Below are positions 18,195 to 63,801 of a stretch of 64,000 nucleotides of DNA, piece after piece. The notes under the pieces are model-generated. The model did not search any database, was not told the DNA's origin, and saw only the letters and a list, made by a program, of their open reading frames with translations. Each line of letters starts with the position of its first letter. Position 1 is the stretch's first letter. A program made the translations under genes and the position numbers. Source of the DNA: an uncultured virus (IMG/VR IMGVR_UViG_3300042446_000574) (taxonomy: Duplodnaviria; Heunggongvirae; Uroviricota; Caudoviricetes); the IMG/VR virus record IMGVR_UViG_3300042446_000574; one strand, written 5' to 3'.

Positions 18195-18486
18195 CCTTTG
18201 TAAATATAATCGTTGGCACGGTCACCTTTTCCCCCTGCGTCGTGATATCAATGTTTTGCTTTGCCTTGCCATAAGCACGGTCAAGGAGCAACTGAGCCGC
18301 CTTGATGTCACCCTTTGCCGCCTGTTCCCTTAGCTTCATGATAATTGCCTCGGCTGCGGTAATACCGTCTTTTTCCTGACCCATGACATTTGCCATGATA
18401 AGGTCAAGGGCGGGAAGTTTTTTAGGGCGACCTGTTCCAACCGTGTTTCCTGATTTCAATTTGCCTCCGTGTTTTCCTTCCCTCAT
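18178..18486 (-). CDS. terS: Terminase small subunit (GRPK-type)
   Basis: GRPKK and A.KGDIKAAQLLLDRAYGK motifs; directly upstream of terL. Confidence 0.75.
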   Translation of the reverse strand: MREGKHGGKLKSGNTVGTGRPKKLPALDLIMANVMGQEKDGITAAEAIIMKLREQAAKGDIKAAQLLLDRAYGKAKQNIDITTQGEKVTVPTIIFTKDGDKS

Positions 18487-19274
18487 GATTCGAGATTTAA
18501 ACGAGAATTGATTCCATTATTTTTAAAAACTTTCCAATCAACAAAATGATGAATACGGTTAAAACGTATTACAGTTTTTGCATATTGCGGCCACTGTGCC
18601 TCTAACATTTTTGCTTTTAAAAGTTTCTTTTTTGGGTCATTGCCTTTGTATAATTCATCTTGATTCCCTCCTTTCATTTTTTTGGACGTACTTACTTTAT
18701 TAATTGTATAATAAACACAACTTCCAGTACTACCTCCATTATGTAATACTTGTAAACACAAATCTACATCCTCATTATATTTAAGTCTCCACCGATAAGG
18801 CAAACTATTTTTTATTAACAATGCTGAATAAATATGACAATTATTTTTAAAAGGTTTTTTAGGTATTTTTCTAACAAAATTATATTCCTCAAATCCTCCC
18901 AAATCAATATTATTTTTTAATGTGTAATTTTCAATATATGACAAAGATGTTTTTATGTCTTTTATTTGACATCTTTTTCCATTAATCCATTTATAAAAAG
19001 ATGTTATGTTATCGTCAAATAACCAATGATGCGTATATCCTAATTTTATCGAATGCTCCCAACAAAAATTTCTTGCAGGAAAACTTCCAAGTCCTAAATT
19101 TGCAAAAGGTAATTTTAACACCCTTTCTTTTCCCAATTTATTTACATAACTATCATATTCTTGTGGCTCAACTGCTATTAAATAATCTAAGTTATCTGCT
19201 TCAAATAAATTTGCAGTCATTGTAACGTCAAATCTTCCTTTGCTAATTATGTAAACAGGGAATTTATTTTGCAT
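18483..19274 (-). CDS. GT-A fold glycosyltransferase (TET/JBP-associated or GREB1-like), candidate DNA modifier
   Basis: PVYIISKGR, ARN, HWLFDDNI, YNEDVDLCLQ and KGGN motifs; downstream of the ParB-like gene. Confidence 0.7.
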   Translation of the reverse strand: MQNKFPVYIISKGRFDVTMTANLFEADNLDYLIAVEPQEYDSYVNKLGKERVLKLPFANLGLGSFPARNFCWEHSIKLGYTHHWLFDDNITSFYKWINGKRCQIKDIKTSLSYIENYTLKNNIDLGGFEEYNFVRKIPKKPFKNNCHIYSALLIKNSLPYRWRLKYNEDVDLCLQVLHNGGSTGSCVYYTINKVSTSKKMKGGNQDELYKGNDPKKKLLKAKMLEAQWPQYAKTVIRFNRIHHFVDWKVFKNNGINSRLNLES

Positions 19275-19304
19275 ATTTTGTACTTAAATTAACGTGCCAT
19301 ACCC

Positions 19305-19853
19305 CTACATCGTCACCACCAAATTTTTATAATCATATTTCATCTTATTTTTATCATACCATTCGGCTGCTAAATCTTCATTATCAAAAATAAAAATAAT
19401 ACGATGCAATCCTTTTGAATTACCAACAGGGTCAAACTCTTCATTAATATCCAATTCATCTTCATTCATTGTGTTTAATTCTGAACCTGCCGACCAATTC
19501 GGTATCTCCATGCCCCACGCTTCCAAGTCCACCACGTCCCAATCGTTCGCCAGTGTATCCCAGTCCCATTCTCCAAATGCTACATTGTCCGCAATGATAA
19601 ACCGCTTCTTTTCCTCCTCAGTTAAATCGCTGCTTCGCTTTACCCATGTTTCATCCACGTCCGTAAATCCAAGTTCTTGCAAGGCGCGAAGCCTCATGTT
19701 TCCCCCGAGTACCACGTTATTTTCGTCAATGACCATCGGGCGAAGCGATAGCATCTTTGGAAACTCCTGTATGCTTTGCTTTAGCTTTTGAAACTTGTCG
19801 TCCCTTAGGACGCGTGGGTTGTTCGGGTTTGGTTTTATATCCTTTAGCTTCAT
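19305..19853 (-). CDS. ParB/Srx-like N-terminal domain protein
   Basis: IKPNPNNPR, VLGGNMRLRA and IADN motifs. Confidence 0.85.
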   Translation of the reverse strand: MKLKDIKPNPNNPRVLRDDKFQKLKQSIQEFPKMLSLRPMVIDENNVVLGGNMRLRALQELGFTDVDETWVKRSSDLTEEEKKRFIIADNVAFGEWDWDTLANDWDVVDLEAWGMEIPNWSAGSELNTMNEDELDINEEFDPVGNSKGLHRIIFIFDNEDLAAEWYDKNKMKYDYKNLVVTM

Positions 19854-20854
19854 ATACTTTTTAACACTTGTTTACGTTTGTTGTTGACGGTGAGAAGATT
19901 TCGCTCAGTCAAAAGCCATTTTCTCCCAGCCTGCAAATGATTAAAATAATCCCCGTCCTTTTCCAACGCCTTTTCAAATTGTCCGCTTAAATCGTCGTTG
20001 CCCTCGTACAACCGCACGCCTGGGACATTGAACTCCGTTATTTCCTTCGGTGCATAAGGAACGCAACCAGTGACAAGCATCTCCATCGCAAAGTTATTCG
20101 ACTTACTTTGGTTAAAATTGTCATTTGTCAACGGGAACACGGCGTAATGTGCCGCACTGTTTTTAATGAGCTCAAAGTATTGAAACAAGGAATTGTTCCA
20201 CGGTATGACCTTTACATTTGGGTAAAGCGTTTTGCCCAACCACTCAGGAATACCAATAAATGCAACCTCTGTGTCCTTGCGGCTGCTGACATAATGCCAA
20301 AATATATCCACGGTTTTTAAATCCTCAATGTGTGTCATGCTTCCACGCCACAACACGCGTTTAATCTTTGCCTCAAGTTTATCAGGTGACACGGGACAAA
20401 GTGGCGTCACTTGAAAGTCAATAGCGTTAGGAATAACCATTATTTTACTTTCGTCAAAGAATTGTTTGTAAAACTCTTTGAGGTACGGCGTTGAAACGAT
20501 TATATAATCGGCATACTTGAAAGCCTTTTCAACAGATTCTTTTACCTGCGTTTTACCGAAGTGTGCCGACGCTGGATTCGCAGCGTTAACCTCATGTAAT
20601 AAATCGTCGTGGTCAAGAATGATTTTTTTACCCATCTTCTTCGCCTCCGCGATCATTGATAACATTCCGTCACCATTGGGCCGTTGAAACAGGATAACGT
20701 CAACGTCGTAAAAATCATACCACTTTACCGTCTCAGGATTAAGGTAAGTAATATGAAGATTTATCATCTGGGAGCGAAGCCGCATGAATGGATTAACGGA
20801 ACGATAATAATCGGTCGTTGGACTGGTTAAATTGGTGACAATGCCTAACCTCAT
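19850..20854 (-). CDS. GT-B fold glycosyltransferase
   Basis: YYR..P, FQRP, DHDDL, VSTPYL, VIPNAID and NFNQSKSN motifs. Confidence 0.8.
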   Translation of the reverse strand: MRLGIVTNLTSPTTDYYRSVNPFMRLRSQMINLHITYLNPETVKWYDFYDVDVILFQRPNGDGMLSMIAEAKKMGKKIILDHDDLLHEVNAANPASAHFGKTQVKESVEKAFKYADYIIVSTPYLKEFYKQFFDESKIMVIPNAIDFQVTPLCPVSPDKLEAKIKRVLWRGSMTHIEDLKTVDIFWHYVSSRKDTEVAFIGIPEWLGKTLYPNVKVIPWNNSLFQYFELIKNSAAHYAVFPLTNDNFNQSKSNNFAMEMLVTGCVPYAPKEITEFNVPGVRLYEGNDDLSGQFEKALEKDGDYFNHLQAGRKWLLTERNLLTVNNKRKQVLKSI

Positions 20855-21699: not shown

Positions 21700-21768
21700 C
21701 GCAAGTTAGTTTAGTGTTAAAATGTTTTGCGACGGCAAAAAGACGAAGATTAGATTCCTTCACTTGCA
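21700..21768 (+). ncRNA. tRNA-like RNA 1 (degenerate; anticodon arm closed by a 4-nt GACG loop)
   Basis: GCAAGT/ACTTGC acceptor, TAGTTTAGTGTTAAAAT D-like arm, TTTTGC-GACG-GCAAAA, GAAGA-TTAGATT-CCTTC T-like arm; one change in B. Confidence 0.55.
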
Positions 21769-21772
21769 AATT

Positions 21773-22320: not shown

Positions 22321-22422
22321 AGTCAGGTGGCGGAATGGTAGACGCACATCCTAAATACATTCAGATGGTGGAACTGAATTAATTGGGTGTACCACTTGCG
22401 GGTTCGAATCCCGTTCTGACTA
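22321..22422 (+). ncRNA. tRNA-like RNA 4 with an extended hairpin replacing the anticodon arm
   Basis: AGTCAGG/TCTGACT, same Leu-type D arm, GCGGG-TTCGAAT-CCCGT; insert ATTCAG-ATGGTGGAA-CTGAAT. Confidence 0.75.
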
Positions 22423-22524: not shown

Positions 22525-23133
22525 ATGATTGATAACAAATTTTTTTTTGACAAATCCGTTGAACTTGGTTTTACCACGCGCGACTACGAACCCCTTGTTT
22601 CCTTGCATACCAACGGCGCAAGGGTTTTGCAAATCATGGGGTGTGAATCCGTGTTTGAGTTCGGATCAGGACTTGGATTCTTTTTATCCGCCTGCCAGCG
22701 CGTGGGCTTGTATAAACACGTTGGGTATGACATTAACCCGTATGAAAGGGAATTTGCAATAAGCAAGGGCATTGACCCAGGGAGATATTTACTTGCCAAA
22801 TGGGTGACGAAATACCAGTTAGGAAGATATGAATTAAAGACTCATGGTTCATACGATGCCATTTACTCCACCGAAGTCTTTGAACACATGACCGACGAAC
22901 AAATTAGCTTTGTCATGCCAATCCTTTACAAGACCTGTAAAAAGTATTTTTATTTTACGTCCACTCCTCATGCCTCAGCCGATCCAGCGTTCGACATTGA
23001 ATGGGGACATATTAACCTGAAGCAAAAGGACGAATGGGTTGCCTTGTTTCATCGACACGGTTTTGACTTGCTGAGGGAAGCGACGGAGGTAACGCCGTGG
23101 GGGCTTTTGTTCGTGAAACGGGAGAAAAAGTAA
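22525..23133 (+). CDS. Class I SAM-dependent methyltransferase
   Basis: VFEFGSGLG, GYDIN, YDAIYSTEVFEHM and GHIN motifs. Confidence 0.85.
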   Translation: MIDNKFFFDKSVELGFTTRDYEPLVSLHTNGARVLQIMGCESVFEFGSGLGFFLSACQRVGLYKHVGYDINPYEREFAISKGIDPGRYLLAKWVTKYQLGRYELKTHGSYDAIYSTEVFEHMTDEQISFVMPILYKTCKKYFYFTSTPHASADPAFDIEWGHINLKQKDEWVALFHRHGFDLLREATEVTPWGLLFVKREKK

Positions 23134-23277: not shown

Positions 23278-23389
23278 TATATTTGTAATGTTCTTTTGAA
23301 TGGCGTAGCAGGTATTCAAAAGGAAATTGGAACAAACCATTGTTCTAACCCTTTGCCAACGAACTGCTACTCGTTGGCAATTTTTTTTT
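23278..23389 (+). promoter_or_regulatory. Promoter box plus three-hairpin leader/attenuator, copy 1
   Basis: TATATTTG; P1 TTCTTTTGAAT/ATTCAAAAGGA; P2; terminator TTGCCAACGA/TCGTTGGCAA + T9; loops GTAGCAG and CTGCTAC are complementary. Confidence 0.75.
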
Positions 23390-23395
23390 ATACTC

Positions 23396-24664
23396 ATGCA
23401 AATATTAAAAGAACTTGAAGTCTTAATCCCACCGTTAACAAGTGAGGAATTTAAGCAACTGGAACGTAATATTCTTGAAGAAGGAATACGCGACCCATTG
23501 GTGACATGGAACGGTATTTTAGTCGATGGACACAACAGGTACAGGATTGCTCAGGAATACGACATTGACTTTGAAACCGTGGAAAAGGAATTTCCAGATA
23601 TTTTAACGGTAAAGGTTTGGATGATTGTAAATCAATTCGGGAGAAGGAATTTAAACAATTATCAACGGAGTGTTTTAGCCTTGCATCTTGAAGGCGTTTA
23701 CAATGAGAAAGCAAAGGAAAAGCAAAAAGGAGGACAAGGAGGTATTTTGCTTCCGCAGAAATCTGCGGAAGGAAATAAATTAGAAAATGAGACAAGGTAT
23801 AAATTAGGTAAAGTTGCGAACGTTTCACATGATACGATAAGCAAGGTAAAGAAGATTGAAGCCACCGCCTCCCCCGAAATCAAGGCAAAGGTAAGCACTG
23901 GGCAAATAAGCATAAACGAGGCATTTAAGGAAATCAAGAAGGAGGAGAATGAACAATCAAAAACGCAAAAGGCGATTGAGATAATTGAAAAAGTTTACGA
24001 AAGCAATACAAATATTTTTCATGGAAATTGTATCGAGTTTATTAAAACCATTGAGGATAAAAGTATTGACTGTTTAATAACCGACCCACCCTACGGCGTT
24101 GACATTCAATTTGGCGCGTATGACAATCAACTGAGCCGCAAGATTGAAAACGATGGAAACATTGACGATGCTTTGCTTTTGCTTGATGAAATGTTACTTG
24201 AAGTAAAAAGCAAATTAAAAGACAATGCACACATTTACATTTTTTGTAACTGGAAAATATATCCTCAATTCAATGCAATTATTTCAAAGCATTTTCAAAT
24301 CAAGAACCTCATAATATGGGATAAATTATTCATGGGAATGGGTGACTTAAAAGGGAATTATTCGAGCTCTTATGAAATGATTGTTTTCGCTGGAGGCAAC
24401 AGGGAATTTTTATCAAGACCCAAAAATATAATTCAATGCAGATTTAATGATGAAAGATTTCATAACACTCAAAAGCCCGTTGATTTAATTAAGCAACTCA
24501 TTGAAAATAGTACCAACGTCAATGAAACAATTTTCGATCCTTTCCTTGGAAGTGGCTCAACTGTCATTGCGGCAAATCAATTAAAAAGAAATTTCATTGG
24601 ATGCGAAATTGACGAACAAAATTATAAGATAACTTTAAAAAGACTTGAAGATGGTAAGTGTTAA
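23396..24664 (+). CDS. ParB-like domain fused to a beta-class N6A/N4C DNA methyltransferase
   Basis: LVDGHNRY; TDPPY, HNTQKP and DPFLGSGST in beta order; ATG 23396 preferred over the TTG inside the leader. Confidence 0.9.
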   Translation: MQILKELEVLIPPLTSEEFKQLERNILEEGIRDPLVTWNGILVDGHNRYRIAQEYDIDFETVEKEFPDILTVKVWMIVNQFGRRNLNNYQRSVLALHLEGVYNEKAKEKQKGGQGGILLPQKSAEGNKLENETRYKLGKVANVSHDTISKVKKIEATASPEIKAKVSTGQISINEAFKEIKKEENEQSKTQKAIEIIEKVYESNTNIFHGNCIEFIKTIEDKSIDCLITDPPYGVDIQFGAYDNQLSRKIENDGNIDDALLLLDEMLLEVKSKLKDNAHIYIFCNWKIYPQFNAIISKHFQIKNLIIWDKLFMGMGDLKGNYSSSYEMIVFAGGNREFLSRPKNIIQCRFNDERFHNTQKPVDLIKQLIENSTNVNETIFDPFLGSGSTVIAANQLKRNFIGCEIDEQNYKITLKRLEDGKC

Positions 24665-25220
24665 TTATAAAGAATTTAGAAAGTACTCAGACAAAAGCCT
24701 TCCAGAGGCAAAGGAGCATATTTCAAAATTTTTCAATCAAGGACTTTATAAAATATCGTTGGTCGAATTTATTAAGGAATCTGGAAAATATGACGATACC
24801 ATTAACGCTATTGACTTATTTGTAAATATTCCTGAGTTTAAAATAAGTCACAGGGCACGAAAAAAGTACGGAGACATTATTGACATTACGATTAAAACAA
24901 GAAGCCAAAACCCTGAGGTAAAATCTGAGTACGAAAAACTTTTGGAGTTTTCTTCACTCAATAAATCATGGTTTTATTTTTATTGTTTTTATGACGAGGA
25001 AAAGGATAATATAAGCAGATATATTATTTACGATTTACGCAAATTAATCAGGCTTCCAGAGTTTAAAGACAAATCAATCTTTGCTTATCCAACAGACAAA
25101 TTTAACACAAAAGACGGCGGCTCACATTTTAATTGCATAACCGTTAATAAGTTAATTGAGAAAGGTGTTATTTTGGCTGACTGGTCAAAAGGTGAAGGCG
25201 AAGCAAAATATTATATATAA
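24651..25220 (+). CDS. Hypothetical protein, possibly restriction-endonuclease-like
   Basis: Overlaps the MTase stop; DD...AIDL...ISHRAR pattern loosely resembles a PD-(D/E)xK core. Confidence 0.45.
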   Translation: MVSVNYKEFRKYSDKSLPEAKEHISKFFNQGLYKISLVEFIKESGKYDDTINAIDLFVNIPEFKISHRARKKYGDIIDITIKTRSQNPEVKSEYEKLLEFSSLNKSWFYFYCFYDEEKDNISRYIIYDLRKLIRLPEFKDKSIFAYPTDKFNTKDGGSHFNCITVNKLIEKGVILADWSKGEGEAKYYI

Positions 25221-25236
25221 TTTGCCAAATATTTAT

Positions 25237-25345
25237 TATCTTTGGTTATTCTTTTGAATCAGGTAGGAGCGATTCAAAAGAACTTCGGGACAATATCCGC
25301 ATTGTTCACATTGCCCAATGAACTCCTACTCGTTGGGCATTTTTT
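25237..25345 (+). promoter_or_regulatory. Promoter box plus three-hairpin leader/attenuator, copy 2
   Basis: TATCTTTG; P1 TTCTTTTGAATC/GATTCAAAAGAA; P2; terminator TGCCCAATGA/TCGTTGGGCA + T6; loops GTAGGAG and CTCCTAC. Confidence 0.75.
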
Positions 25346-25355
25346 ATTATAACTT

Positions 25356-26351
25356 ATGGAGTTTTCATTTAACGTTGAATTTGCTAATCGTTACGGTATT
25401 GACGAAGCCATTATGATAAAATCCTTCCAATTTTGGATAAGGTTAAATAAGGCTAATGGAAATAATTTTAATGATGGTAAGTATTGGACGTATAATACAA
25501 ATAAGTCACTTGGTTTGTATTTTACCTTTTGGAGCGAAAAGCAAGTGCGAAGGATTATTGAAAGCCTTGTCGATAAAGGTATTTTAATAAAAGGTAATTA
25601 TAATAAAATCGGTTACGACAGAACGATTTGGTATGCCTTTGTTAACGAAGATTTATACCTTTCAGATAACTTTCATTTACCAGATAATGGATTTGACCAA
25701 AAGGGAAATACCATTTTACCAAATGGGCAAATGGATATTTCCAAAAGGGCAAATCGATTTTCACGAAAGGGCGAACCTATACCAGTTGCTAACCAAGTAC
25801 TAAATACATTTACTAACTCAGATAATATTGAAAATCATTCTGATTTTACCGAATTTGAAAAAATTGAAATTACTGAAAATGAAATTAACCAAAGTAAAAA
25901 GGTTAATCCATTTACTTTAATAACACAGTTAGAAAAAGAAAAAAGTTCCGCGAAAAAAGAAAAAGAAAAGATTCCCTCCCCCACTTACGCCGCCTTCTCC
26001 GTGTTTTGCCAAACCTTCGAAAACTTATCTGGCGCCGCGTATCCGACTGACCAGAATGGACATTACATCATGATGCCCAAAGACGCGGGTCAAATGAAAT
26101 TTCTTATGCAATACATTGACAAAATAGACAGACAGGGCGATAGCCTTGAGGCGTTGAAGGTGTTTATTCAAGCGGCATGGAACCTGAATGACAAATGGCT
26201 GAGGGCAAATTTCACCATTGCAAACATTTACGGACAAGCCTCAAAGATATTTACCGCGTATCAAACGACAAGCCCAGCGGCAAAGGACAAGGCGTATAAT
26301 GATAAATTACAAGAATTGCTTGCCGAAAGAATGGCAAAGTTTCAAGATTAA
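25356..26351 (+). CDS. Phage replication initiator (N-terminal winged helix)
   Basis: F.VE.A..YGI.EAI...WTYN....F.FWS.KQ.RR and DRT.WY motifs; internal iterons. Confidence 0.8.
   Translation: MEFSFNVEFANRYGIDEAIMIKSFQFWIRLNKANGNNFNDGKYWTYNTNKSLGLYFTFWSEKQVRRIIESLVDKGILIKGNYNKIGYDRTIWYAFVNEDLYLSDNFHLPDNGFDQKGNTILPNGQMDISKRANRFSRKGEPIPVANQVLNTFTNSDNIENHSDFTEFEKIEITENEINQSKKVNPFTLITQLEKEKSSAKKEKEKIPSPTYAAFSVFCQTFENLSGAAYPTDQNGHYIMMPKDAGQMKFLMQYIDKIDRQGDSLEALKVFIQAAWNLNDKWLRANFTIANIYGQASKIFTAYQTTSPAAKDKAYNDKLQELLAERMAKFQD
25690..25777 (+). repeat. Four 22-bp quasi-palindromic iterons (putative origin of replication)
   Basis: GGG core at 25703, 25725, 25747 and 25769; period is not a multiple of 3. 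Confidence 0.75.
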
Positions 26352-27101: not shown

Positions 27102-27125
27102 GTTTCATAATTTGGTTTTGTTTTG

Positions 27126-27158
27126 GTGGGGCATAGAAATTATGCCTCACTTTTTTTT
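27126..27158 (+). terminator. Intrinsic terminator
   Basis: GTGGGGCATA-GAAAT-TATGCCTCAC + T8. Confidence 0.8.
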
Positions 27159-27167
27159 AATTTATTT

Positions 27168-27219
27168 TTGTAAATATTTTTTTATTCAAATAATTATATT
27201 TAAATTTACGTATTGAAAA
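27168..27219 (+). promoter_or_regulatory. Repeated ~52-bp intergenic element, copy 1 of 3
   Basis: TTGTAAATATTTTTTT...TTAAATTTACGTATTGAAAA. Confidence 0.7.
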
Positions 27220-33973: not shown

Positions 33974-33991
33974 ATTATTTTGCATTTATTT

Positions 33992-63727: not shown

Positions 63728-63796
63728 CGCAAGTTAGTTTAATGTTAAAATGTTTTGCGACGGCAAAAAGACGAAGATTAGATTCCTTCACTTGCA
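63728..63796 (+). ncRNA. tRNA-like RNA 1 (B)
   Basis: Near-identical to 21700-21768. Confidence 0.55.
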
Positions 63797-63801
63797 GGTT
63801 T

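Follow-up and report, generated by a model that had tools for sequence, protein, structure and literature searches.

Two similar leaders stand ahead of two genes on the plus strand of an uncultured Caudoviricetes virus (IMG/VR record IMGVR_UViG_3300042446_000574), and the locus raises the question of what such a leader does at the genes behind it and whether it belongs to any class of RNA already described. The window, meaning the whole stretch of 64,000 nucleotides that was analysed, is numbered from its first letter. Both leaders consist of a promoter-like TAnnTTTG box, a hairpin (P1), a second hairpin (P2) and a terminator-like hairpin (P3) that runs directly into a string of T residues; box, P1 and P3 make up a conserved phage leader in which the P1 and P3 loops are fully complementary over seven letters. 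In copy 1 the box lies at 23278..23285 (TATATTTG), P1 at 23291..23324 with the letters GTAGCAG in its loop (23305-23311), P2 at 23327..23348, and P3 at 23353-23380 with CTGCTAC (23364-23370) in its 8-nt loop; a nine-T run follows (23381-23389) and the ATG is at 23396. Copy 2 is laid out likewise, with the box at 25237..25244 (TATCTTTG), P1 at 25249..25282 (GTAGGAG, 25263-25269), P2 at 25288..25307, P3 at 25312-25339 (CTCCTAC, 25323-25329, also in an 8-nt loop), a six-T run at 25340-25345 and the ATG at 25356. All of these features are on the + strand, and the ATG falls 6–10 nt past the T-run in both copies. The box, which we take to be the Bacteroidota -7 promoter box, is retained at the head of aligned relatives. 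P1 and P2 of both copies are supported by folding and covariation and P3 by folding, a terminator call and the covarying kiss; P2 is optional in distant relatives, and makes the linker shorter. The coordinates, letters and order of elements in the initial annotation proved correct on re-reading, as did the seven-nucleotide complementarity of both loop pairs.

On the plus strand both leaders adopt the three-hairpin fold with a stability equalled by none of 200 shuffles (z -4.9 for copy 1, -3.9 for copy 2), and the minus-strand folds are weaker (z -2.8 and -3.2). P3 of both copies is classed as terminator-like, with a G+C-rich 10-bp stem followed directly by 6–9 T, in support of the terminator originally proposed. 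No other nested state comes close to the three-hairpin fold in stability, folds lacking P3 being weaker by 11–15 kcal/mol, and no nested antiterminator hairpin competing with P3 was found in the folds. A likeness of the P1 5′ arm to boxA was dropped because the arm is base-paired and the likeness is absent from other families.

The loop pairing extends far beyond the two copies. A profile built from four copies with both loops masked gave 56 distinct matches at E < 0.01 in IMG/VR loci, 43 of which were aligned after near-duplicates were left out. The kissing helix, formed by the two loops, is paired in 299 of 300 cells in these 43 sequences, every pair being Watson-Crick with no G-U, and no shuffle among 500 reaches this figure (shuffles average 65.5% paired and slid registers 21–42%). 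All seven pairs have changes on both sides, and 13 different loop sequences occur among the 43; the cells count related sequences and not independent events. The C:G to G:C exchange that the initial annotation saw between copies 1 and 2 is accordingly real and beyond chance, being accompanied by two further copies and by the covariation of the 43 sequences, and the loss of loop complementarity in homologs that it named as counting against a switch was not seen in these relatives from a loop-masked search. Stem pairing is 89.5% (P1), 87.6% (P2) and 97.4% (P3) of cells with frequent G-U pairs, and because the stems use G-U pairs freely the element is read as an RNA of the + strand. Among variant loci, L031 and L044 have a broken T-run, and L017, L022, L028 and L040 have no ATG within about 25 nt behind the element. 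An early detector that required complementarity was superseded by the loop-masked profile and by the semi-blind pattern and address-blind detector described below, and is not used as evidence because complementarity was its search criterion.

The first gene behind copy 1 encodes an N6/N4 DNA methyltransferase of 422 aa with a weak ParB-like N-terminus (23396..24664, +; PF01555, E 1.1e-35; phrog_67 and phrog_4715), and the first behind copy 2 a replication initiator of 331 aa (25356..26351, +; phrog_11233, E 3.5e-31, and related families, with tblastn matches to annotated phage replication proteins). A 189-aa gene between the leaders (24651..25220, +) is an open reading frame with no PHROG match. 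The Pfam, PHROG and tblastn matches support a position ahead of replication and methylation genes in this genome. The broader tie of the element to both functions, which had been proposed, holds for the position at the replication gene and falls away for methylation, because the gated gene varies freely among relatives.

The window is part of a 70-kb contig (G000, to 70016) that contains two related phage genomes in tandem, offset by ~41–43 kb (window 1-41223 and 41224-64000, the second continuing to 70016 of the contig). The two are 86–92% identical over long matches, their gene cassettes behind the leaders differ, and the contig is possibly a chimeric assembly. The first genome encodes portal, terminase, head protease, lysis and nucleotide-metabolism genes. 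The second has its own pair of leaders beyond the window: copy 3 (contig 65265-65383; L001 1766-1884), with loops GCACTAC/GTAGTGC, lies before an HNH-helicase gene, and copy 4 (contig 67803-67922; L001 4304-4423), with loops GTGCAAG/CTTGCAC, precedes an initiator with another N-terminus. These loops are unlike those in the window and are still complementary. At related loci (L008-L073) the position after the first leader holds an exchangeable cassette (methyltransferase, HNH-helicase, ParB/GmrSD-like and others), and the N-terminus of the initiator is also swapped while its C-terminus is retained; the two leaders, being similar, may be sites of recombination. The host is inferred to belong to the Bacteroidota from the presence of the layout in cultured phages and from the promoter box. 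A GTDB host search gave one match, a contig from the region of the second genome (L132) in a MAG labelled Pseudomonadota, which is taken for a mis-binned phage contig.

The leader is a real, widespread and unnamed phage RNA element. A pattern consisting of the promoter box and the copy-1 loops matched 57 IMG/VR loci (44 distinct), 37 of the 44 having both heptamers in hairpin loops and a T-run behind the second, with folds read by eye. The structured loci include 28 outside the family of the window, where P2 is often absent. When two positions of the pattern were left free, all 14 matches with loops and a T-run were complementary, versus 17 of 41 others. A detector blind to the loop letters found a 7-bp match in 13 of 21 candidates at 81 loci (shuffle mean 1.1, maximum 5) and in 10 of 17 once seed loci were removed; on 80 NUMOD4 loci it gave 4 of 9, which is not above the shuffle maximum (4). 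A metagenome pattern scan with rarer loop sequences yielded 112 distinct matches, none both structured and complementary; the two structured ones were tRNAs, and the scan was treated as noise.

In distant phage families the layout of box, P1 and terminator, with P2 optional, is situated ahead of initiators, primases, helicases and HNH genes. Of 27 downstream proteins scanned from the pattern loci and the second genome, 11 have a Pfam family (VirE/PriCT, Prim-Pol, DUF6291, NUMOD4-HNH, HNH-helicase, HTH_36 or ParB/GmrSD) and 16 do not. Among cultured phages, Flavobacterium phages elemoF, elemoA_7-9A and elemoA_13-1A have the layout ahead of the replication operon with three different loop sequences, and Olleya phage Harreka_1 has it in the same position; taken alone, these leaders fold more weakly (z -1.4 to -3.8). 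The passages of PMC8776804 that concern integrases name them for other phages and not for Harreka. Riemerella phage GRNRAP2 shows no such leader in the stretch read ahead of its replication genes, and Bacteroides phage B124-14 shows none in one short gap. A model of the element (R1) performs well for the close family only, scoring distant elements at 25–39 bits and missing the elemoF and Harreka records.

Several variants accompany these loci. A small GAAA-capped hairpin lies 5′ of P1 at L081, L160, L166, L259 and L281, and P3 of L160, L166, L201, L214 and L419 contains an AGUA/GAA-type internal loop adjoining the kissing loop. An int-alpA RNA (RF02996) scores above its gathering threshold at L115 1061-1129 (- strand), near a pattern match with an atypical fold.

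That the element matches no named motif, as initially supposed, is borne out by the Rfam 15 covariance models: at gathering score none matches over the element in the window, the second phage, or 20 + 16 related loci, and the best hit of an E-value-level search of the window has E 0.4. A full-text literature search returned no description of such a leader, as judged by title or abstract start. One unnamed candidate from a survey of viral RNAs, DNAVirus_8377 (Fremin et al. 2023, PMC10690425), is 105 nt long with a predicted terminator, has a Bacteroidetes host and mostly freshwater origin, and lies upstream of HNH/NUMOD4 genes; other candidates of that survey lie before VirE/PriCT or HTH_36 genes. 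The main-text passages describe no loop-loop pairing, and DNAVirus_8377, compared by description only, may be the same element without the kiss annotated.

Among RNAs already described, the guanidine-IV (mepA / GGAM-1) and Gd4v riboswitches come closest in architecture. According to passages of the published accounts, the P1 loop of guanidine-IV pairs with the terminator loop, and a ligand-stabilised kiss gives read-through (PMC7736828, PMC11611296, bioRxiv 2020.10.21.349134); kiss and full terminator are mutually exclusive there owing to linker length (PMC11611296, bioRxiv 2020.10.21.349134). The phage leader has in common with guanidine-IV and Gd4v, as these passages present them, pairing between the loop of a 5′ hairpin and that of an intrinsic terminator directly upstream of a gene, and a variable linker (PMC7736828, bioRxiv 2020.10.21.349134, PMC11611296, PMC9788692). 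It differs in lacking invariant loop nucleotides, at least 23 different seven-letter sequences having been found, and in its full 7-bp Watson-Crick kiss, its optional hairpin between P1 and the terminator, and its lack of an Rfam match. The genes differ also: exporters and transaminases (sugE/MATE/GNAT/transaminase) in the guanidine-IV and Gd4v passages, and replication, methylation, HNH or unassigned genes here. Judged by its sequence, the element appears to be built like a guanidine-IV attenuator without being a member of that family, because it lacks both the conserved pocket and the genes. A kiss that joins a 5′ hairpin to a terminator loop has been validated in guanidine-IV, where the published passages describe it as ligand-driven, and the same topology is widespread in Bacteroidota phages at DNA-replication genes with no evident ligand pocket.

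The loop letters themselves change fast and yet stay perfectly paired. Parsimony gives 5.2 steps per column in the kissing helix, 5.0 in unpaired columns and 3.0 in the stems, counted over related sequences on a tree from a short alignment, in which module swapping could inflate the number of steps. The pairing strength of the 23 loop sequences is confined to -7.1 to -11.3 kcal/mol (sd 1.2, versus about 2.5 for random heptamers). Four different loop sequences occur on a common P2/P3 backbone in phages with DUF6291 proteins that are 96–100% identical. The first position is G in 19 of 23 and the second T in 21 of 23, a preference partly biased by search patterns starting with GT, and one sequence recurs in distant families, in a search that selected for it. 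Twin leaders of one genome differ in 14 of 14 distinct combinations, which is not significant (P about 0.25). Because slow evolution would be expected of a purely structural helix that lacks G-U intermediates, these patterns suggest that the letters serve as an address in RNA-RNA recognition. No loop letter is invariant, and a ligand pocket is therefore unlikely.

The leader probably sets how much transcription reaches the downstream genes, in the manner of a valve. A ligand-free attenuator acting in cis, with the kiss promoting read-through into the replication and methylation genes, has in our estimate about an even chance of being correct. Transcription would start from the TAnnTTTG box and polymerase would terminate at the T-run, unless P1 and P3 kiss during synthesis, once the P3 loop has emerged. 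By the behaviour measured in guanidine-IV, from which the direction of the switch (kiss = ON) is borrowed, the kiss would strain the short linker such that the base of P3 cannot close and polymerase reads on; competition between kiss and terminator closure, described in the guanidine-IV and Gd4v passages, is proposed for the phage leader by analogy. Kissing and closure of the terminator would race each other to decide the outcome, and since a small-molecule pocket is not evident, the kiss likely owes its stability to the 7-bp helix itself.

The linkers permit a crude check of this strain. The ratio of the length that the linker can reach to the length needed is 0.70 and 0.91 for the two window copies; over 124 rows, a set that includes duplicate registers and was entered on complementarity, the median is 0.82 (range 0.2–1.9) with 75 rows below 1, and it rises to 1.15 in rows without a linker hairpin. 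Linker length and helix length are not correlated in these rows. The ratios are mixed and suggestive only. In the remaining 49 of 124 rows (ratio at least 1) the linker is long enough for kiss and full terminator together. This would suit another reading, in which the kiss forms on the finished, terminated RNA of ~95 nt, stabilising it or favouring termination, with the small RNA as the product and read-through as a leak. The dominance of the full three-hairpin fold and the placement of the promoter box directly ahead of P1 would fit such an RNA as well, but it is an unlikely account, leaving unexplained why the element always lies just ahead of the ATG of replication-type genes and the rapid change of address at constant strength, and the ratios of the window copies are below 1. 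Two RNA runs (X1 and X2, shares 0.11 and 0.06) provide contigs of relatives, possibly derived from DNA and without molecule ends.

The topology shared with guanidine-IV and Gd4v also raises the prospect that a metabolite, an ion, or a phage or host protein stabilises the kiss, in the way that guanidine acts in guanidine-IV; the conserved GU that opens the P1 address and an A-rich stretch behind P1 could be contact points. We rate such a gated attenuator as quite unlikely; the downstream genes encode unrelated proteins, and this diversity argues against autoregulation by the gated protein. Control of translation initiation or mRNA stability in place of termination is improbable. It would make the T-rich stretch part of the initiation region, as the ATG 6–10 nt behind it and the broken T-runs of L031 and L044 would allow, and C3_41T2LP (L217) has its complementary loops upstream of a separate terminator; but the G+C-rich 10-bp stem of P3 runs straight into 6–9 T and leaves the start codon uncovered, and the four loci without a nearby ATG have the element nonetheless. 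Finally, an IncI/IncB-type arrangement, in which the opposite strand supplies an antisense RNA that blocks the kiss in cis, would account for fast-changing loops ahead of a replication initiator and for a strictly Watson-Crick kiss, but is very improbable, since the stem G-U pairs do not hold on the minus strand and minus-strand TAnnTTTG boxes, the only promoter type scored, occur in 11 of 91 elements versus 8.6 expected, at scattered positions.

IncI/IncB control had been put forward as an analogy at the outset, and the lack of an enriched antisense promoter leaves it unsupported. In those plasmids rep is controlled at the level of translation, which requires both a leader peptide and a counter-transcript, the Inc antisense RNA. 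What the two have in common is loop pairing in cis at a replication initiator, with gating as proposed here, and loop letters that could define specificity groups; in the phage leader the pairing partner is instead the terminator loop.

The preferred cis attenuator can be extended to an action in trans. The free P3 loop of a terminated leader could bind to the P1 loop of a nascent leader whose letters are identical, forcing its termination; this is the least certain step. One 95-nt leader would then be sensor, signal and target: a terminated leader could not kiss itself, its free loops would act on nascent leaders, and terminated copies would shut those with the same address. We hold this self-addressed attenuator to be a tentative and rather doubtful possibility. 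The released leader is the simplest partner in trans because no antisense promoter is enriched and there is no convincing second target site. Sites of at least 10 nt matching the loops elsewhere in the same phage are absent for copies 1–3, with one for copy 4; no separate processed antisense RNA, third site or Rfam C4-type match was found for the leader.

These searches bear also on the second analogy in the initial annotation, to P4 CI and P1 c4 RNAs, of which a leader with (predicted) premature termination ahead of replication genes stands and a separate antisense RNA with two targets does not. Immunity RNAs of the P4 CI and P1 c4 kind are marked by a separate antisense RNA with two target sites. 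Parts of PMC4825925 indicate for P4 CI RNA with seqA/seqC and for Gifsy-1 IsrK that leader-derived RNAs can act on their own transcripts. The phage leader resembles these systems and P1/P7 c4, as far as described there, in its place before replication or lytic genes and its predicted premature termination, and the action in trans of a small leader-derived RNA on its own kind of transcript is for the phage leader a proposal. It differs in having only two complementary boxes, both in hairpin loops and one of them the terminator loop, and no integrase or repressor family is matched among the 59 window proteins scanned.

To our knowledge, how Bacteroidota phages time or limit their replication has been little studied. 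If the self-addressed reading were true, these phages would count their own genome copies or exclude competitors with the same address, with neither a repressor protein nor an antisense gene, and their addresses would diversify much as the incompatibility groups of plasmids do. The elemo phages, with three addresses on one host, make the idea testable, and cultured phage-host pairs with natural address variants allow direct tests of both the direction of the switch and its action in trans. Kissing attenuators that do not pair with one another would, as a set, also be a useful gene-control part in Bacteroidota.

Other features lie near the leaders. tRNA-like genes with weak scores (35–42 bits) are located at window 21700-21769, 22321-22422 and 63728-63797, just upstream of the replication module, and in the elemo phages a tRNA is likewise directly ahead of the leader. 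Glucosyltransferase-like, ParB-like and glycosyltransferase genes adjoin the terminase gene at 18483-20854 (- strand) and, with a second methyltransferase at 22525-23133, form a possible DNA-modification set. A conserved terminator-like hairpin follows a 244-aa gene at window 27125-27170 and at 69832-69934 of the contig, with an AT-rich repeat behind it that recurs near 33987. In Bacteroides phage C3_41T2LP (L217, about 1900-2230), the complementary loop pair and separate terminator come before a second promoter box and a c4-like leader, an arrangement that is possibly a gut-phage variant.
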